A stretch of 48,562 nt of DNA from a virus (lineage: Duplodnaviria; Caudoviricetes), in the IMG/VR virus record IMGVR_UViG_3300033518_000147, positions 1 through 48,562 of that record. The stretch is one strand, 5' to 3'. The notes below the pieces were generated by a model. It ran no database searches, was not told where the DNA came from, and was given only the letters and a program-made list of their open reading frames with translations. Position 1 is the stretch's first letter; every line of letters starts with the position of its first letter. A program made the translations under genes and the position numbers. Shown here piece after piece: positions 4,233 to 47,309 of the stretch.

Positions 4233-4465
4233 TGATAGTTAAAAAAATATTTTATAAGGAGTTGCTTGATGAGGCTATGAAAACTTCTGTTCAACCGCTC
4301 GAATGTGAAGGAATAAAGTATTACACAATTGAATTGCTTGAGCTGGCATTTAAAGAAATAGAACTTCACAAAAAATCTGAAGAGGAAAAAGCGTTATTAG
4401 AACAAGAGCTTGGCGTTAAAGAAGAGAAAAAGAATGACAATAAGGTAATAGGAGGCAGGCTATGA
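4229..4465 (+). CDS. Small hypothetical protein with C-terminal tag (EKALL...GGRL)
   Basis: 78-aa ORF with ATGA overlaps at both ends. Confidence 0.75.
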   Translation: MMIVKKIFYKELLDEAMKTSVQPLECEGIKYYTIELLELAFKEIELHKKSEEEKALLEQELGVKEEKKNDNKVIGGRL

Positions 4466-5025
4466 ATCAAAATATCAATTTGGGTGGGGTATGTGGAGAT
4501 CCTGGTCTTTCAGGAATTAAGGGACAAATAGGAATGTATAGTAAAAGTGAGTTCAGTAGAAGGAGATCTCTGAATAGAAATGAAGTATTAAAAGAAGTTA
4601 AAGAAAACGCATATTTACTAGCTTATGTACGTGCTGAATTTCAATCAGATAAGGAAGTAGTACTTGCAGCAATTAATAATAACACTTTTGCTCTGGAATA
4701 TGCAAGCAAGACTATTAGAAACGATAGGGAATTTATTTTAGAAGTAGTAAAGAAAAACGGATTTGCTCTAAAGTTTGCTAAAAATAGACTTAAAAAAGAT
4801 AAAGAAATAGTGCTTAATGCGTTGCAAGATTATGAATATAATTTAGATTATATAGATGTCGTATTAAAAAAGAAGATTAAACAACTCGTATCAGATAATA
4901 TTTGTGCAAATTGTGTTGATGCAGTAAAGCATTTAATAGCAAAAGAAGAGAGAAAATTGTTGAAGAAAGCAATTGGTTCAAAAGGAAAAGAGAAGAGCGT
5001 TAATACTATTGGAGGACGATTATGA
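4462..5025 (+). CDS. DUF4116 repeat protein with C-terminal tag (ERKLL...GGRL)
   Basis: Repeats DKEVVLAAINNNTFALEYAS, DREFILEVVKKNGFALKFA, DKEIVLNAL. Confidence 0.85.
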   Translation: MNQNINLGGVCGDPGLSGIKGQIGMYSKSEFSRRRSLNRNEVLKEVKENAYLLAYVRAEFQSDKEVVLAAINNNTFALEYASKTIRNDREFILEVVKKNGFALKFAKNRLKKDKEIVLNALQDYEYNLDYIDVVLKKKIKQLVSDNICANCVDAVKHLIAKEERKLLKKAIGSKGKEKSVNTIGGRL

Positions 5026-6176: not shown

Positions 6177-6623
6177 ATGTTTAAAGAACGATTTGATCCT
6201 CAATTAATAGCACTAAGACAAGAGTTTAAAAGGCAAATGGTCTTTTTAACTGCTGAAGAGTTAGTCCATCATTGCATCTATAACACACGTGGAAAGAGAA
6301 TTTGTGAGCGGATGATGAAGAGTCATGCTTACACCATGAAATACAATGATTTTCTAGAAGATATGGATTTGTTGGAAATTTACAACTATATCTCAACATG
6401 TATCACAATGAAACGACAAGGTGATGAAGTCTATTTATCTAATAGTGATACCAAAGACACAGCAGCAGTAAGCGGAAGACTTGCTATCATGATTGGATTG
6501 ACGTTAGAGAAGATCTTATTGTTTCTCAACTCACAAGAATACAGGAGTCATCTTGAGCGTATCAAGTTGAATGAATCTGTTCCCGTGCCGTACAAAGCAA
6601 AGCAACGAGCCATTGCACTATAA
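6177..6623 (+). CDS. Hypothetical protein with C-terminal tag (ERIKL...RAIAL)
   Basis: 148-aa ORF. Confidence 0.75.
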   Translation: MFKERFDPQLIALRQEFKRQMVFLTAEELVHHCIYNTRGKRICERMMKSHAYTMKYNDFLEDMDLLEIYNYISTCITMKRQGDEVYLSNSDTKDTAAVSGRLAIMIGLTLEKILLFLNSQEYRSHLERIKLNESVPVPYKAKQRAIAL

Positions 6624-6633
6624 GGAGCAACGC

Positions 6634-6957
6634 ATGACTATTGATGATAAAGACGAATTGCTTATAGCAGTAAAGAAAGACGGGCTAGCACTCAAACATG
6701 CAAGCGATGCACTGAAGAATGATAAGGAAGTAGTTCTAGCAGCAGTCAAGCAAGAGGGATGTGCCTTACAGTATGCAAGCCAAGAGCTTAAAGCAGATAA
6801 GGAAGTCGTGTTAAAAGCAGTAAGACAGACATCATGGACAATACAGTATGCTAGTCCAGGTTTATATTATGACGTTTGTCGAATAGGAACCAATTACGTT
6901 AAAGCACTAAAGCAACTCATTGCAGAAGACATAGGAAGTTTAGCCAAACCTCTTTAA
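6634..6957 (+). CDS. DUF4116 repeat protein
   Basis: Start at ATG 6634 after TAAGGAG; repeats LKNDKEVVLAAVKQEGCALQYAS, LKADKEVVLKAV. Confidence 0.85.
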   Translation: MTIDDKDELLIAVKKDGLALKHASDALKNDKEVVLAAVKQEGCALQYASQELKADKEVVLKAVRQTSWTIQYASPGLYYDVCRIGTNYVKALKQLIAEDIGSLAKPL

Positions 6958-7050
6958 TTGTCTTTATGAACGAGCGGAGCGTAGTGTAATACATAACCAA
7001 ATCCGAAGGATGTTTTGTTATTTAATATTCTATAAAAGGATGTTAAATGA

Positions 7051-7225
7051 ATTGTGCCTTATGCATCCTGTCTTATTGTATCTTATGCATTAGGTATTGT
7101 GTCTTATGTATTACTATGCCTTATGTGTTATGAATCCCGTATTGTGTCTTATGTCTTATAGGATGTTATAAGGTATTCATGTATGTGTATTGTATTCATT
7201 GTATTGGATCCATGCATGCCTTATA
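7051..7225. repeat. Cluster of short (ATTGTG)YCTTAT(G) repeats
   Basis: About 8 copies of YCTTAT, several as ATTGTGYCTTATG (7051, 7096, 7141). Confidence 0.7.
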
Positions 7226-7560
7226 CATCATAGATAGCACGTCAATCCTATCATTAATTGCACGTCTTTAGAGAGATCAGGTGTATTGCTATTAAACCAT
7301 TAACAGAACGCCTATTACACTCATAAAACGCAGTACTTACACTCATAGTAGGATGTTTAACTCATTCACCGCACCGCACTATCATTCACAGCAGGACGTT
7401 TAACCATTAAAAGCCGATCTATTTACTCATTCACCGCACAGCATACACTCAAAGCAAGGCTATTTAACTCATTAATAGACATTCATTTTATTAATAGCAG
7501 GACGTTTAACTCATTGAGAGGAGAGCTTACTATCATTAGAAGCAATGCTTACTACCAAGG
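7225..7560. repeat. Degenerate tandem array with about 21-23-bp period (ACTCATT / TATCATT core)
   Basis: Core CAT/CAA at 7298, 7322, 7344, 7363, 7383, 7405, 7428, 7450, 7470, 7512, 7534, 7556. Confidence 0.7.
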
Positions 7561-7815
7561 ATAGGAGAGAGTATTATTAAAATTGTGGGAAAGCGGGAAG
7601 AAATAGAGAGGAAAGCGTAATAAAAACCAAGTCTGTTTAGATCCCGTCTTTCTTATTCTCACCATTTCCACAATTTATTAGCAAAAATAATAATTTTGGT
7701 TAAATTTACGCCTATTTTATGTCAACGTCCACACTATTTACCTAAAGCTAAAACTACTAATACTAATAAAAAGTAAAATATTCGTGAATCATAGTCATTC
7801 CACTAATAATCTAAC

Positions 7816-8715
7816 GCACGCCTATTATAAAAAACAATTGATTTACGGGGTATTTTTGGGTGTTTTCGAGGAGAAAAAGAGAAAAGAAAAAAAGAGGCAC
7901 GAAAAAACACGGGCTGAGACAAAAATTATTTTTAAATCTCTTCGCAATTAAATAGAAAATTGCAAGTAGTAAACTATCATAATAATAGCACGCCTTTGAT
8001 AACATTAATCGCACGCCATTAGTATCATTCATAGCACGCTATCATTGAAATGAAAGCACGCCCTCTCTACGCCATAACGCATTGCTCCTTAGTGCCTTAT
8101 CGCAGTGCCATAACGCAACGATAGACGGACGATCTGCCGGGTTTACTCGGCTTTATTGGTGTGCTGGGGTTGGGAAGACATTAGAAGCCTGACGCTTGGA
8201 TGAAAAACAGCAAGGGGTACTCCCGGGGGTAGGCTTTTCTTTTGGGGGTGCGGGATTTGGGAAGGCGTAGATATATACACATTTCTGGGTACAAGCCTTT
8301 CCACTGATCGCACCTCTGTTAATGGTTTTAAACACGCACGCCTAGTGTGTGGGCATTAAACGCTTGATAAAGCAATGGTCTTAATCGCTTGATAAAGCCG
8401 TGTCTATTAACGTCTGCCTTAGTGTGGTTAATCTCCTTTCAATTAATGGTGTTAAATGGTCTGCTTGTGTTAGTTGCATAAAACAACAATATAGCAAGAC
8501 AATGAGTGATCTTATCGCACGCCTATTAATGAGGGGTGGGGTAGTACGGGGTAGTCCTTTATAGTGCTAAAACAAGCAATAAAGCGGGTCTTTTCATTTA
8601 AAAAATGCACGGTTATACTATTCTTATGTTGGTAAACGTATTTAATAAAAAAAGATTAACAAAGAGGTACTTTTATGAGTAATAGCACTGCAAATAATGA
8701 GATGGATGGCACGCC
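7816..8715. repeat. Repeated GCACGCC motif upstream of and into terS
   Basis: Copies at 7816, 7988, 8011, 8034 (GCACGCT), 8056, 8336, 8517, 8709; four are spaced 22-23 bp apart. Confidence 0.75.
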
Positions 8716-9313
8716 TATAGAAGAAGAAGACGATAAGCCTGTTTCGGGTAAAACGCAATGGGTGTCTCCTTATATTCAGTCCTTGGATCTAGAAGCAGCA
8801 ATCGGAAAAAAGATAACCAAGAAACAAGAGCACTTCGCAATGTTATTGTCTCGTGCGGGGATTGATAACATGACCGATTACATGTGTTATAAAATAGCCT
8901 ATGGTAGAGATAACGATACCATGGAAACCCTACGTGTTAATGCATCTAAAACTAAAGCTATTCCTGCTGTAACAGAAGCGGTTAAATACTTTAAAGACTT
9001 CTTCTCAAAGAAAGCGGTAAAGTCGTTTGAGTATGGTGTGGAAGAAGCCTTTCGTGATTATGAAGAGGCTCATGCTATTGCTAGGGAAAAGAGAGACGCT
9101 AAAACAATGGTGTTGTGCACTTCTAAGAAAGCAGAATTGAACGGCTTAATTATCAAGAGAACGGAAAATATTACTCCGGAAAGATCTATTGACGCATTGG
9201 ATCAAGAGATACTGCAATTCTTAAAGAGCCTACCTAAGGATATAGTAAAGAGAGTAGCGGAAGATGTAACGGATATAGAAGTGATAGAGGCTAAGAAAAT
9301 AGGTAATAAGTAA
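8675..9313 (+). CDS. terS: Terminase small subunit
   Basis: ITKKQEHFA...YKIAY N-terminal HTH pattern, helical oligomerisation region (KAELNGL); first gene of the packaging module. Confidence 0.8.
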   Translation: MSNSTANNEMDGTPIEEEDDKPVSGKTQWVSPYIQSLDLEAAIGKKITKKQEHFAMLLSRAGIDNMTDYMCYKIAYGRDNDTMETLRVNASKTKAIPAVTEAVKYFKDFFSKKAVKSFEYGVEEAFRDYEEAHAIAREKRDAKTMVLCTSKKAELNGLIIKRTENITPERSIDALDQEILQFLKSLPKDIVKRVAEDVTDIEVIEAKKIGNK

Positions 9314-9379
9314 TTTGACATTGTATTTTATTGTGTCAAGATAATAAGTGGTTTCAATATATATACAAGGAGAACCACT

Positions 9380-10282
9380 ATGAACCCGTCTTATACCAAT
9401 GAGTATTCTAATTTTAAAGAGCAATTAAAACTACTCAATCCGTCAATGCAAATCACGTTTACTTTAAATGACAGTAAACAAATCGTCTGCAATTATTCCG
9501 ACATTGAAGCAAAGAACGACTTGCTCATTATTAAAAGCAATTCGGATGCTTCAATAAATATCATACCTTTATCTAGCGTTGCATACATTACTGGTAAAAG
9601 TAATGATCATGTATTAAAGGTCGATCATATTGCTAAATATAGTCCCGTAAAATCGGAGATCCATTCTGATAAAAAAAGAAGACTGGTGTTAGCTGGAAAT
9701 CAGACAGGTAAAACGACCATCATTCTTTCAGAAATAGTGAATCTGCTTAGAAACAAGAATAAGAAAATTTTTGATCAAGCATTTCCTCCTTATCGCTATG
9801 TTCAGATAGACCATGCTTTTTGCGATATTGTTTATGCAACCTATAATTCATTTGGTTTAAAAGTTTTTGCTGATAAACTAAAATGCCTTATGGGAAATAA
9901 TATTAACATCACGTATGAAGGAGGAATTCCGAAATATGCATCATCAGATTTTATAAAAGGCAAGATCATATTTATATCATATGAAAGCTATTTGGGAGAT
10001 TTAAAGCAATATGATAACGTACACTCGTTTTATTTTGATGAAGAGCCTCCACTTTCTTTTGTACAGTGTTTAAGTCTCCTTAATCAAAACGTTAATGTGC
10101 TGTGCTGTATGACTCCATTAAACGGGTTATCTGAATCAGTCAAGTTTATGAAAAGAAACGATTATCAAGAATATAATTTATCAGTCGATGAATGTAATTT
10201 TCATTCAAAAGAGAGAAAAGAATTTATTCAAGATAGTTATACAAGAGCCAATTGTATTAGCAGATATCACGGCATGTATTGA
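9380..10282 (+). CDS. Truncated terminase-large-subunit ATPase paralog with an unrelated (Sm/Hfq-like?) N-terminal domain
   Basis: Walker A AGNQTGKT, Walker B FYFDEEPP, coupling motif MTP; ends before the nuclease domain. Confidence 0.8.
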   Translation: MNPSYTNEYSNFKEQLKLLNPSMQITFTLNDSKQIVCNYSDIEAKNDLLIIKSNSDASINIIPLSSVAYITGKSNDHVLKVDHIAKYSPVKSEIHSDKKRRLVLAGNQTGKTTIILSEIVNLLRNKNKKIFDQAFPPYRYVQIDHAFCDIVYATYNSFGLKVFADKLKCLMGNNINITYEGGIPKYASSDFIKGKIIFISYESYLGDLKQYDNVHSFYFDEEPPLSFVQCLSLLNQNVNVLCCMTPLNGLSESVKFMKRNDYQEYNLSVDECNFHSKERKEFIQDSYTRANCISRYHGMY

Positions 10283-10303
10283 TTAAATTTATTCTTATCT
10301 ACT

Positions 10304-10329
10304 AAAAGGGGCTTTATAGTCCCTTTTTT
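10304..10329 (+). terminator. Intrinsic terminator
   Basis: AAAAGGGGCT-TTAT-AGTCCCTTTTTT. Confidence 0.75.
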
Positions 10330-10368
10330 ATTTGGTATTCTGTTATTGTATTAAAGGAGTATCTAATA

Positions 10369-11136
10369 ATGACTGAACGTGTTTATGGTTGGGTTCCTGA
10401 TGTGTCGGATCATCGGGATTTATATTTCTCTGCTACTTCTTCCTTTGGAGTTCGTCTTCCTGATCATGTAGAAATAATGGGAAGAGATAATCCGATAGAA
10501 AATCAGGGCTCACTTGGTTCATGCACAGGAAACGCTGTTACTTCTGCTTTTGAAATAGTATTAGATGTCAATCCAAAGTCTCGGTTATTTGTTTATTACA
10601 ACGCACGCCTAATTGAAAATTCTGTTGATATTGACGCTGGTGCAATGTTACGTGATTGCATAAAAGGCTTAATCAAGTATGGTGTATGCAACGAGTATAC
10701 GTGGGAATATGATATCTCCAAATTTGCTGTAAAGCCTTCTGATTCTTGCTACGAGGAAGCATTAGATATGACTACGATCATAGAGAGATATGAAAGAGTT
10801 ACAACATTAAAAGATATTAAGATTGCTTTGTCTAATGGCTTGCCTGTAATATTTGGATTTGCAGTTCCAGATTATTTCGATTCAGAAGATTATTCAAATG
10901 GGCATGTATTACGTTTACCTACCGATAGAGACGCTATTGTTGGTGGGCATGCTGTTGTAGCAGTTGGGTATGACGATAGAGAATCTGTGCCAATAATTCA
11001 TGTAAGAAATTCTTGGGGAACCAGATGGGGAGATGACGGTTATTTCAAAATGGATCAAAAGTGGTTTACAGATAAGCGTAGGCTTTGTGATGATATGTGG
11101 GTCATTCATCCAATTACTAAAACGGATGGTGTTTAA
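10369..11136 (+). CDS. Papain-family (C1A, xylellain-like) cysteine protease
   Basis: QGSLGSCTGNA (catalytic Cys), GGHAV (His), RNSWG (Asn); N-terminal YGWVPDxxDHRD. Confidence 0.93.
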   Translation: MTERVYGWVPDVSDHRDLYFSATSSFGVRLPDHVEIMGRDNPIENQGSLGSCTGNAVTSAFEIVLDVNPKSRLFVYYNARLIENSVDIDAGAMLRDCIKGLIKYGVCNEYTWEYDISKFAVKPSDSCYEEALDMTTIIERYERVTTLKDIKIALSNGLPVIFGFAVPDYFDSEDYSNGHVLRLPTDRDAIVGGHAVVAVGYDDRESVPIIHVRNSWGTRWGDDGYFKMDQKWFTDKRRLCDDMWVIHPITKTDGV

Positions 11137-11264
11137 TGGGAATGGAGAATTACATTAACGCAATCATAGTCTTATATTGCCTTATGGTAGTCGTTCCATG
11201 TGCTATAAGAATGTCTTTGGTTGCTTATGGATTGTATAAAGTATTTAATAGAGATAAAAAGTAA
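11136..11264 (+). CDS. Small 42-aa hydrophobic, probably membrane, protein (not in the ORF track)
   Basis: TAATG overlap with the protease stop; MGMENYINAIIVLYCLMVVVPCAIRMSLVAYGLYKVFNRDKK. Confidence 0.5.
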   Translation: MGMENYINAIIVLYCLMVVVPCAIRMSLVAYGLYKVFNRDKK

Positions 11265-11402: not shown

Positions 11403-12920
11403 ATGAATAAAGAACAAGAAGAAGAATTACTATCCTATCAAGATTTAATAGATCACCTCGATCCGTCAAGAAAACGCATTCTATTAAAGTTATTAGATGA
11501 AAGAAAAGCTGCTAAAGAAAAAGAAGAATTAGAGTATAGACGTAATGCTCTATCTCGTTACGACCCCGTTCCTAAGCAGCGTGAATTCCATAATGCTGGA
11601 CTTACTTTTAGAGAGCGTCTATTCATGGCAGCAAATCAAGTAGGTAAAACATTGGCGGGAGCAAATGAACTTGCTATTCATGCAACGGGAAAATATCCTG
11701 CTGATTGGCAAGGTTATGTATTTGATGGTCCTGGTCCTTTTATAGCTATCTGTGGATCTCCTACATATGAGACTAATACGAAAGGAATTCAAAAAGAATT
11801 AATCGGTTCTTCCATTGATAAAACCACAATGGGAACAAAAGCCATTCCATTTGATTGCATTGTTGATTACAACTTTAATCCTGGATGTGAAGGTGCTCTT
11901 TCTTCTATCGTGGTTAAACACGTATCAGGACAAAACTCAATAATAAAGTTTGCTGCTTATGCTCAGGGTTGTGAAAAATGGGCATCAGACACCGTTAACT
12001 ATGTATGGTTTGATGAAGAGCCTCCTGAAGATATTTTCTTTGAAGGACTTACTAGAACTAATAAATTAGACGGATTAATTGTAGTTACTGCAACTCCTTT
12101 ATTTGGTATGTCTTCGGTGATTAAACGCTTCTATAAAGAACCAAAACCGGAATTAAAGAATAGATGCAAGTACGTGCAAATGGGGATTATGGACGCACTG
12201 CACTATCCTGAGCATAGAAGAAAAGAGATTGTAAATAATTATCCTCCACACGAACGAGACGCTAGAGCTTATGGTATTCCAATCTTTGGATCTGGCTTAG
12301 TCTTTCCTATAAATATAGACAATGTAATTATGACTCCTATTGAGATCCCTAAACATTGGGCTGTATTAGGTGGTATTGACTTTGGATGGGCTCACTTTAC
12401 TGGTGTTATTAAAATGGTTTGGGATCGTGATCACGATGTAATCTATGTCGTTTGTTGTTATCGGGTAAAAGAAACTCCTGCTGACTTAATCTATTCTGCT
12501 GTGAAGTCGTGGGGAAATATTGAGTACGCATGGCCACATGACGGACTGCAACATGAAAAAGGTGGTGGAGAACAATTGGCTGTGCAATATAAAGAAGCAG
12601 GTTTCAAGATGCTCGATCAAAGAGCAACCTTTGAAGAAGGGGGTAATAGTGTTGAGGCTGGTATTCTTGAAATGATGTCACGATTTGAAAAGGGTAAGTT
12701 AAAGATCTTTTCTAACTGTGTTGAATTAATAGACGAATTAAGGCAATATCATAGAAAGAACGGCGTAATAGTAAAAGAAGGTGATGACACTATTTGTGCT
12801 CTACGTTACGCAATAATGATGAAACGATTTGCAACAGTGGAAAAACCGCTTATCCCTAAATGGATGCAAAGTTTGCGGTATAGCTCTAATAGCTCTGGAT
12901 TGAATAGACAGACAGCATAA
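11403..12920 (+). CDS. terL: Terminase large subunit (P22-like)
   Basis: PKQREFH, AANQVGKT, VWFDEEPP, TATP; nuclease motifs GIDFG, WPHDG, DDTICALRYA. Confidence 0.96.
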   Translation: MNKEQEEELLSYQDLIDHLDPSRKRILLKLLDERKAAKEKEELEYRRNALSRYDPVPKQREFHNAGLTFRERLFMAANQVGKTLAGANELAIHATGKYPADWQGYVFDGPGPFIAICGSPTYETNTKGIQKELIGSSIDKTTMGTKAIPFDCIVDYNFNPGCEGALSSIVVKHVSGQNSIIKFAAYAQGCEKWASDTVNYVWFDEEPPEDIFFEGLTRTNKLDGLIVVTATPLFGMSSVIKRFYKEPKPELKNRCKYVQMGIMDALHYPEHRRKEIVNNYPPHERDARAYGIPIFGSGLVFPINIDNVIMTPIEIPKHWAVLGGIDFGWAHFTGVIKMVWDRDHDVIYVVCCYRVKETPADLIYSAVKSWGNIEYAWPHDGLQHEKGGGEQLAVQYKEAGFKMLDQRATFEEGGNSVEAGILEMMSRFEKGKLKIFSNCVELIDELRQYHRKNGVIVKEGDDTICALRYAIMMKRFATVEKPLIPKWMQSLRYSSNSSGLNRQTA

Positions 12921-19896: not shown

Positions 19897-20355
19897 ATGA
19901 GTGTTAATTTATCAAAAGAATTAAGAGATCAAGTTTTGATGGTTGGATTTAAAACAGCATTAGCAAATTGTGTAGGTGAAGTTCGCACTGGAACTCAACC
20001 TGTTGACGCAAACGCTGCTGCTACTGGTGTTGTGCTTGGATATATAACAGTGGATGGTGGAACGTTTACTCCTGGTTCTCCTACGAACGGATTGAACTTT
20101 GGAACGGCTGTTGATGGAGTTATTGGAAAAGATCCTGCTGAAGTATGGAAAGTAACGGTTTCTACTGCTGGAACTGCTGGACATATCCGATTTAAAGGAA
20201 ATGCTGTTGATACTGGACTGTTATCTACAACGGATGTGCGTATGGATTTAAGTGTCGGATCAATTGGTGCAGATTTCGATTTTGGAAATGTAAATTTAAA
20301 AGTGGGTCAACCTATCACGATTGATACACTAGACGTAACATTACTTCCTGAATAA
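19897..20355 (+). CDS. Virion structural protein, paralog 1 of 3 (152 aa)
   Basis: GTQPVDANAA.TG.VLG, GTAGHIRF, RMDLSVG. Confidence 0.75.
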   Translation: MSVNLSKELRDQVLMVGFKTALANCVGEVRTGTQPVDANAAATGVVLGYITVDGGTFTPGSPTNGLNFGTAVDGVIGKDPAEVWKVTVSTAGTAGHIRFKGNAVDTGLLSTTDVRMDLSVGSIGADFDFGNVNLKVGQPITIDTLDVTLLPE

Positions 20356-20369
20356 TTTGGAGTATATAG

Positions 20370-20828
20370 ATGGCTATAAGATTATCAACTGGCTTGGTAA
20401 ACGCAATGCTCGGTGAGATTGGTTTTCAAAAAGCATTAAAAAATGGTCGTATTGAGTTGAGAAATGGTACTCAACCCTCTGAAGCTGACGCTCAACCTTA
20501 TGGTGCTTTACTAGGCGTTGTGTCGCTTGATGGAGGTTTATTTGTTGCAGGATTGCCAGACAATGGGCTTAACTTTCAATCACCATTAAATATATACATC
20601 GAAAAACCATTATTTGATAAATGGAAATTTACAGCATTAGCAACTGGAACTGCTACGTGGTTTCGTTTCAAAGGAAATGCTGAAGATCTGGATACTGAAT
20701 CAGAAACAGCAATACGATTGGATGGCACTGTAGGATCTATAGCTGCTGATTTAATAATGAATCCAAGTGTAATCATTAACAACGTTTACAGTATTGATGA
20801 ATTTATCTTTGGATTACAAAAACAATAA
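20370..20828 (+). CDS. Virion structural protein, paralog 2 of 3 (152 aa)
   Basis: LSTGLVNAML, GTQPSEADA, GTATWFRF, RLDGTVG. Confidence 0.75.
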   Translation: MAIRLSTGLVNAMLGEIGFQKALKNGRIELRNGTQPSEADAQPYGALLGVVSLDGGLFVAGLPDNGLNFQSPLNIYIEKPLFDKWKFTALATGTATWFRFKGNAEDLDTESETAIRLDGTVGSIAADLIMNPSVIINNVYSIDEFIFGLQKQ

Positions 20829-21986: not shown

Positions 21987-22445
21987 ATGGCTTTAAAATT
22001 AACACGTTTTTTAAGAAAGCAAATATGCGTTACAAGTTCTGCTGCTGATGCTGTTGGAAATCTTGTTTTAAATGTTTATGGCGGAACAGTACCAACGAAT
22101 GCGGAATCTCCTTTATCTGGAAATACTTTATTAGTGTCTTATAGAAATGGAGCGGTTTATCCAGCGTTTAATTTAGTTCTAGAATATGATGACGTTGCTG
22201 AGGCAATGGTTCCAGTAGCAGGACAAGTATTAACTGGAACTGCTGTTGCAACTGGTACTGCTACACATTTCAGATTAGAGCTTGCAACGGATGACGGTTT
22301 AAGCGATGCTGTAGACCAAACAAGACCACGTATCCAAGGAACAGTTGGAAGTACCAATCAAGATATGTTCATGGGAAATACTGCAATAACTTCTGGTGAT
22401 GTTAAGACGCTTGGTGGTTTTGCTTTGCAATTACTTTCTTTATAA
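21987..22445 (+). CDS. Virion structural protein, paralog 3 of 3 (152 aa)
   Basis: VYGGTVPTNAES, GTATHFRL, RIQGTVG. Confidence 0.75.
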   Translation: MALKLTRFLRKQICVTSSAADAVGNLVLNVYGGTVPTNAESPLSGNTLLVSYRNGAVYPAFNLVLEYDDVAEAMVPVAGQVLTGTAVATGTATHFRLELATDDGLSDAVDQTRPRIQGTVGSTNQDMFMGNTAITSGDVKTLGGFALQLLSL

Positions 22446-46767: not shown

Positions 46768-46814
46768 CTTTGTGCGCTACTATTCGTCCATCATCAACCA
46801 CCAAGGAGCCTTTA

Positions 46815-47309
46815 ATGGATGAACTAAACGAAGTAAGTATTGAGCAATTGCTGGAGCAACAAGCACTTCTCGCTAGCAAAATAGAAGCAATTCGTACTGC
46901 CAAAAAAACGGAAATTCTTGATCTGGTTAAGAAATACGTGTCTCAATACAATCTGGAAATCAAAGACGTTTATCCACATTGGAAACCAGAGATTGTTTAT
47001 CGAGATTCTGAACCAGACGGAGAACCACACTCAACAAATTCTCTAAAAGGGATAAAGATTGCTGCTAAGTACAGAGACACGGAAAGTAGTAGCGAATGGA
47101 CAGGCAAGGGTCTTACACCGAATTGGATGAAAAAGCATTTGGCAAATGGAAAAACAAAAGAAGACTTTTTGATTGATAAGCCTGTTGAAGTTGAAGTTAC
47201 TGGAGAGGTAAAAGAACAAGTAGCGCAATTTATTGAGTCTGTAGTTGTTCCAATCGAGGAAGAAGTTATTACTGTAGAAGAAGAAGTAATGTTTGATAAG
47301 ACCGAGTAA
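46815..47309 (+). CDS. H-NS family nucleoid-associated protein (betaproteobacterial type) with acidic tail
   Basis: ATG 46815 after AAGGAG; N-terminal coiled coil; AAKYRD...EWTGKGLTPNW...KEDFLI. Confidence 0.88.
   Translation: MDELNEVSIEQLLEQQALLASKIEAIRTAKKTEILDLVKKYVSQYNLEIKDVYPHWKPEIVYRDSEPDGEPHSTNSLKGIKIAAKYRDTESSSEWTGKGLTPNWMKKHLANGKTKEDFLIDKPVEVEVTGEVKEQVAQFIESVVVPIEEEVITVEEEVMFDKTE

Follow-up and report, generated by a model that had tools for sequence, protein, structure and literature searches.

We describe an intact open reading frame (ORF; positions 9380-10282, plus strand) in the genome of an uncultured phage, encoding a 300 aa protein which joins a predicted Hfq/Sm-like domain to a diverged ATPase domain of the P22-type large terminase (TerL). 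The product could be an oligomeric look-alike of the terminase that binds host terminase-sensing defence proteins, a candidate decoy rather than a motor; we put this forward tentatively, on the strength of sequence and of analogy with known terminase sensors.

The stretch of DNA analysed (the window) is a linear virus record of 48,562 bp with an estimated completeness of 66%, and the one sequencing run listed for it is a microbial mat metagenome. The window encodes a P22-like portal, a major capsid protein, an endolysin and spanins, and the major capsid proteins of Acidovorax phage AP1 and Pseudomonas phages phiR18 and KPP25 share 35-39% identity with that of the window. The phage is thus probably of the podovirus type, with a Gram-negative host. 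Upstream of the ORF lies a gene of 212 aa (8675..9313, +), a putative small terminase gene (terS) by its position, which is 36-40% identical to the syntenic gene in the relatives L006, L088/L089 and L167, and has no family match at E <0.01 in Pfam, PHROG or NCBIfam. Downstream lie a papain-family (C1) peptidase gene (10369..11136, +; Pfam PF00112, E 1.7e-17), the complete TerL gene (505 aa; 11403..12920, +; Terminase_6N E 1e-23, Terminase_6C E 6e-16) and then the portal gene.

Other features of the window were recorded along the way. The putative terS is preceded by 1.7 kb free of long ORFs (6958-8674), which holds several short spaced repeat families (periods of 21-24 and 43-45 nt) and a G-rich tract and is possibly an origin or packaging start. 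Three paralogues of 152 aa (19897-20355, 20370-20828 and 21987-22445) belong to one virion protein family (phrog_3758). Among the proteins encoded at 4462-5025, 6571-6957 and 46770-47309, two match phrog_31839 and one phrog_10171, families which we take to resemble DUF4116-repeat and H-NS-like proteins.

The ORF is absent from the nearest relatives. The four nearest TerLs are 52-65% identical to that of the window, and the loci compared were L006, L088 with L089 (one phage) and L167, the P0004 locus being left out. All three relatives show the order putative terS, short intergenic region, C1 peptidase gene (70-75% identity), ORF of about 40 aa and terL, and the gap between terS and the peptidase gene measures 101-119 bp in them versus 1055 bp in the window. 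Since the same gene order occurs without the ORF in three relatives, the ORF is an insertion of about 950 bp that carries a ribosome site and a terminator of its own. The 25-kb record of L006, itself a fragment, contains no match to the ORF besides its TerL. Downstream of the ORF, the window (10334..10365, +) aligns with the intergenic DNA of the relatives with a score reached by 0-2 of 1000 shuffles, and is ancestral; upstream, the likeness is not significant (51-484 of 1000 shuffles). The insert therefore begins directly after the terS stop codon, and the survival of a 5' half of the ancestral intergenic DNA upstream, which we had considered, failed the shuffle test. A single gain would explain this with fewer events than losses in nearer as well as more distant relatives.

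The same comparison yielded several observations on the region as such. The C1 peptidase gene and a hydrophobic ORF of about 40 aa (10369-11264) sit between the putative terS and terL, an arrangement kept in the three relatives, and the peptidase (70-75%) is better conserved across them than TerL (52-65%). A hairpin shared by the four phages lies over the ribosome site of the peptidase gene (window 10334-10365; L006 1240-1283; L089 4863-4898; L167 2039-2072), with folding z of -2.8 to -4.4 (-3.6 in the window, the strongest of the 26 window starts tested); one of its 11 pairs shows a compensatory change. It resembles the late-control hairpins of T4. Behind the putative terS, L006 (1179-1192), L089 (4800-4813) and L167 (1986-1999) have a perfect palindrome of 12 bp, TGTAACGTTACA, which is absent at the corresponding place in the window.

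The ORF has neither an internal stop nor a frameshift. An identical contig of 2066 bp (L005) was found in another assembly, though it may derive from the window's own sample, and Logan contigs of run X1, which may likewise be that sample, cover the ORF with zero differing letters. As these contigs agree, the ORF is, as far as can be told, not an assembly error. A Shine-Dalgarno sequence, AAGGAGA (9366..9372, +), of the type that the structural genes of this phage use, lies 7 nt before the ATG, and a hairpin over this ribosome site was not significant (z -1.5). The codon adaptation of the ORF (0.66) falls within the range seen for genes of this phage. The linker between the two domains contains no in-frame ATG, and therefore the ATPase domain would be made only as a fusion.

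The original prediction had compared the gene to a moron, placed between a TTGACA-N13-TGTCAA palindrome and its own terminator. Both elements are present, as an inverted repeat at 9315..9339 and as a terminator-like hairpin (10304-10327) with a U-tract (feature 10304..10333, +), and no such hairpin was seen at the corresponding position of L089 and L167. The palindrome, a possible promoter or operator, is the sole exact match to TTGACA-N13-TGTCAA in the window. Perfect inverted repeats with 6-bp arms and spacers of 3-20 nt are however common in this AT-rich genome (8.4 per kb, 410 in the window), so that the palindrome alone is no more than expected by chance. A sigma-70 scan did not place the site in its plus strand list, the spacing from TTGACA to GATAAT being 19 nt; it is not a consensus promoter. 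The comparison with morons thus holds for the terminator and for the empty site in 3/3 of the nearest relatives that could be retrieved, and the promoter is a possible one without a consensus match. Expression would be driven by the ORF's own signals.

Residues ~84-300 (9629..10282, +) form the diverged P22-type TerL ATPase domain, as judged by BLASTP, a TerL HMM and fold matches; the best matches of the ORF in both sequence and fold are P22-type TerLs. The collinear motif matches between the ORF and the phage's own TerL that had been read from the sequence were all found as claimed, and BLASTP aligns the two proteins at 23% identity over residues 84-255 (E 1e-8). An HMM built from 73 related TerLs matches with E 3e-14 and aligns residues 81-113 and 196-298. 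The Pfam model PF03237 (Terminase_6N) does not match the ORF. Its ATPase part is 18-27% identical to those of 72 TerLs, which are at least 31% identical among themselves. Atlas features give 0.95 for TerL ATPase homology, and the Atlas's own model agrees. Walker A occupies residues 105-112, Walker B with the catalytic Glu 218-224 and the coupling motif 243-249, the last reading C-M-T-P in place of T-x-T-P. In the near-invariant column of the adenine-binding Gln the ORF has Lys91, beside a two-residue gap, which bears out the earlier remark that this Gln is missing. A stop just before the nuclease domain had also been proposed, and indeed the HMM alignment ends at the conserved R-x-x-G (R295-x-x-G298), two residues before the stop codon.

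In P22 gp2 the ATPase domain spans residues 38-284, the nuclease 313-482 and a basic tail 483-499 (PMC11728703). Given this layout and the end at R-x-x-G, the ORF stops at the boundary of the ATPase domain. It has no match to Terminase_6C, and the next ORF encodes the peptidase. The nuclease, the C-terminal portal-binding tail and the N-terminal helices of P22-type TerLs are all missing. With neither nuclease nor adenine-binding Gln, the ORF protein is not a TerL.

Structure prediction, which the original prediction had suggested as a check, points to a TerL fold for this domain. A model made from a 61-row alignment (pLDDT 75) matches the TerLs of D6E, Sf6 and P74-26 at Z 15.5-16.3, the highest being 16.3, with rmsd 2.8-2.9 Å over 189-195 residues, and the alignment, being one of TerLs, biases the model toward that fold. 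Residues ~114-195 are unaligned by the HMM and 129-155 are poorly modelled, while the single-sequence model is unusable past residue 75.

The N-terminal part of the protein, residues ~7-76 (9398..9607, +), is predicted to be an Hfq/Sm-like domain of a helix and five strands, with pLDDT of about 66-82 by blocks. AlphaFold2 run without an alignment gave a helix-plus-five-strand barrel for residues 21-70 (pLDDT 66-79). When this was searched against 48,161 chains the top five rows were all Hfq (Z 6.6-6.8), in keeping with the Sm/Hfq-like pattern noticed earlier in the sequence; YaeO, SspB and LSm proteins came after Hfq in the ranking, and RimP and YaeO/Rof were among the matches. Four Hfq chains superpose with rmsd 2.1-2.5 Å over 61-63 residues, and identity to the Hfq/Sm-like proteins is 5-22%. 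Foldseek agrees on an Hfq/Sm-like fold with E of 0.04-0.4 only, and a Z below 8 may reflect a common small barrel. Pfam, PHROG, NCBIfam and PDB sequences gave no match to the domain. It has no net positive charge (6 K+R, 7 D+E), and the RNA-binding motif of Hfq is absent. The domain is predicted to be Sm-like, and not an Hfq.

Sm rings pair strand 5 of one subunit with strand 4 of the next. When four copies of residues 7-76 were modelled together, the predicted contact ran from strand 5 of one copy to strand 4 of the next, head-to-tail, with contact agreement of at least 88% and pLDDT of at least 73. The self-association score was 0.34 against a mark of 0.32, which in calibration was reached by 21/30 solved pairs and 0/23 single chains, and the best of three controls scored 0.00. 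This is a marginal pass, from a four-copy job unlike the calibration, and it may stem from the likeness to Hfq. The domain is thus predicted to self-associate weakly, head-to-tail, and the earlier suggestion of a ring gains some support from the model.

The fusion was found nowhere else in the searches made, and the ORF is a singleton. Among 5.8 billion proteins, a word-indexed search covering lengths near that of the ORF and above returned only the ORF itself or ordinary TerLs; phmmer against 1.84 billion representatives returned the ORF itself, one TerL (E 9e-4) and one low-complexity match of 2163 aa. Viral contigs, annotated phages, plasmids and PADLOC contained no homologue beyond the ORF itself or ordinary TerLs, and metagenome contigs only the one identical copy. 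Atlas rows align residues 26-300 of the ORF to TerLs of 519-813 aa. The idea that the Sm-like part is common to some full-length TerLs was unsupported, as T4 gp17 too aligns from residue 1 and most BFVD matches span the ATPase length only. The open-access literature searched, which includes general background on terminases (PMC7824862, PMC3012670), yielded no terminase decoy, inhibitor paralogue or Sm-fused terminase.

A gene found once, with its Gln motif lost together with a small deletion and a middle part that the HMM does not align and that is in part poorly modelled, might be a non-functional remnant of a duplicated or replaced terL that by chance became joined to a small gene, or else a gene of former use that is now in decay. 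We regard this as quite improbable. Neutral decay, which the original prediction had named as the outcome that would speak against it, was not borne out: in 300 neutral simulations that started from the ATPase part of the phage's terL, every run had acquired stops by 26% identity (0/300 stop-free; mean 12.8 stops), and the first stop appeared at a median of 95% identity, whereas the ORF keeps 300 open codons at less than 30% identity to any TerL. These simulations comprise substitutions only, and a scenario in which a very divergent TerL, so far unsampled, was truncated recently, or in which function was lost recently, fits them too. Among columns at least 90% invariant in TerLs, 14/16 are kept in the three nucleotide motifs versus 7/33 elsewhere (P 2e-5, for a split made post hoc, after inspection of the alignment). 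In total 21/49 such columns are kept, against a minimum of 80% among 72 TerLs. Retention by conservation class is 21/49, 22/78 and 13/109, or 0.44, 0.37 and 0.31 of the TerL means; being nearly flat, as a relic would have it, it leaves the signal of selection resting on the motifs and the open frame. Against a relic also speak the stop codon right after the domain end, the strong ribosome site, the terminator absent in relatives and a codon adaptation within the phage's range. To judge from the sequence, long selection for an open frame and a nucleotide pocket is the better reading, with a recent loss of function possible. The tree branch of the ORF is 6.08 long versus a median of 0.48, which fits the expectation for a conflict gene.

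The ORF would have originated by duplication of the lineage's terL or by capture from an unsampled lineage. In the maximum likelihood tree it joins the clade of the phage's own TerL (99/99), and with 8 rare states shared with that clade it ties for first of 59 trios (mean 2.8). AU tests fail to reject two other placements (p 0.10 and 0.25), and by identity at variable columns the three clade members rank 20, 30 and 54 of 73, so that the tree favours the own terL clade and the other tests do not confirm it.

An origin from a split terL was rejected, as split genes break at about residue 250 and the ORF runs to the R-x-x-G end. Six-frame searches of 326 loci with the TerL-ATPase HMM showed no second paralogue; the 9 loci with two matches carry a split terL. 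These nine (L276, L282, L292, L299, L308, L319, L322, L323 and L275), mostly alphaproteobacterial prophages, have terL divided between two ORFs near 8550-8800 of each locus, with the break at about residue 250, and are a natural split terminase family. In eight the frame changes, and the second ORF has an ATG start of its own, which lies in a motif common to them; in L319 a short ORF separates the two parts, and in L275 both parts are in one frame.

The placement of the ORF inside the terS-terL region, and its grouping with the own TerL clade in the tree, raise the question of packaging. The protein could modulate or poison packaging by entering TerL rings or by occupying the small terminase or the portal, in its own phage or in co-infecting relatives. 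Two relatives without the ORF are in the same run (three loose ends in run X1 match L006 and L089 by eye). Host Hfq is described to act as a ring at the T4 neck (PMC12929587). The ORF, however, is without the N-terminal helical hairpin of TerL (PMC11728703) and without the C-terminal tail that P22 TerL needs for portal binding (PMC5290284). It has lost 26/33 of the invariant residues outside the motifs and is only 23-29% identical to any TerL, and any effect would fall on the TerL of this phage as much as on that of a rival. In TerL the helical hairpin has a role in TerS binding. On these grounds, of which the missing parts and lost residues also count against the dominant-negative inhibitor of the original prediction, we consider interference with packaging unlikely.

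The protein retains the catalytic Asp-Glu and the coupling motif, as one would sooner expect for hydrolysis than for passive binding, and Sm-like folds also serve as protein adaptors (SspB, YaeO/Rof and RimP are among the matches). The ORF could accordingly encode a repurposed ring NTPase with a role outside packaging and Avs, for example on RNA or on a host protein recruited through the Sm-like domain. The lack of net positive charge and of the Hfq motif in the Sm-like domain speaks against it, and no family or neighbour indicates a substrate; we would rate such a role as rather unlikely.

We return to the terminase look-alike. SeAvs3 reads active-site residues of the terminase together with its bound ATP and makes extensive contact with the nuclease, and EcAvs2 forms a bridge to the ATP of the terminase (PMC13601566). 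The reading as a mimic is suggested since the ORF keeps the ATP pocket, the surface that Avs sensors read, while the motor parts are gone. The kept pocket, the fast divergence and the recent insertion would together fit a conflict gene acting by mimicry, although ATP binding, which the sensors read, may be weaker without the Gln. The phage would express this accessory gene from its own unit of ribosome site and terminator, and the Sm-like domains would assemble head-to-tail into a ring displaying nuclease-less ATPase domains. This ring would tie up sensors, for example Avs3, whose grip extends to the nuclease; alternatively, it would hold sensors in a geometry unable to form the active tetramer. 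A decoy would need either a sensor that requires the nuclease or an Sm-like ring that imposes a non-activating geometry. It is conceivable, if somewhat doubtful, that the ring-borne domains are an anti-immunity sponge which binds Avs or Upx in an activation-blocking geometry.

The same published work complicates a decoy. The ATPase domains of 5/5 terminases activated EcAvs2, Upx is activated by the terminase ATPase domain alone, and toxicity with EcAvs2 was seen for T4 vs.8, a paralogue that naturally has no nuclease (PMC13601566); a preprint reports the like for Avs2-trypsin (10.64898/2026.08.25.746987). The decoy idea is possible but weakened, since by analogy free ATPase domains and vs.8 activate Avs2 and do not block it. 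Because ATPase-only proteins activate EcAvs2 and Upx, a protein such as this would be a liability against them unless the fusion alters the outcome. One could turn this around and suppose that conditional expression, for which the independent expression signals might serve, deliberately sets off host Avs2 or Upx and so aborts the infection of a competing phage, as isolated ATPase domains and vs.8 do trigger these sensors (PMC13601566). This is highly improbable: it would be self-destructive in a lytic cycle, a temperate lifestyle is hinted at only by a weak excisionase-like match, and the ORF has no sensor-type domain.

The candidate decoy resembles several known systems in part. With P22-type TerLs (Terminase_6N plus Terminase_6C, as in the phage's own TerL and that of Xylella phage Xfas53) it shares the collinear ATPase domain, Walker A and B, the coupling motif and R-x-x-G, but has an Sm-like domain in place of the N-terminal helices and is without nuclease, tail and Gln. 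With Hfq and Sm-like proteins (Hfq, YaeO/Rof, SspB, LSm) it shares the predicted helix plus five-strand barrel and the contact of strand 4 with strand 5, but it matches no family HMM, is neutral in charge and is fused to an ATPase. T4 vs.8 is, like the ORF, a stand-alone homologue of the terminase ATPase; it has Walker A and B, and its genome also encodes a full terminase (PMC13601566). Unlike the ORF, it belongs to a T4-type lineage, has 219 aa, lies among early genes and activates EcAvs2; no Sm-like domain is reported for it in the available part of that paper, and outside the P-loop the ORF shows no significant similarity to it (E 0.04). Rak2-like phages (CBB_274) and the Sinorhizobium phages phiM12 and phiN3 have truncated terminases which, as here, are a second, incomplete copy near the real terL (PMC5259590). 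They differ in belonging to T4-superfamily jumbo phages and in being conserved across relatives, whereas the ORF is a lineage-specific insertion with an added domain in a P22-type podovirus; the likeness is one of description.

Being intact, ATPase-only and accompanied by a complete terL in its genome, the ORF is of the kind of vs.8 and CBB_274. ATPase-only terminase paralogues are thus already known, and what is new is the Sm-like fusion and a documented empty site. Why phages keep ATPase-only, immunity-triggering copies of the terminase is stated to be open for vs.8 (PMC13601566). The ORF offers a before-and-after comparison, with three empty-site relatives, and an extra domain that can be removed, with which the roles of decoy, trigger and packaging could be separated. 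If its product is inert, it would be an oddity of one uncultured phage; if the reading as a sponge is true, it would stand as the first decoy of the terminase-mimic type, and the recurrent class of truncated terminases would have a function.
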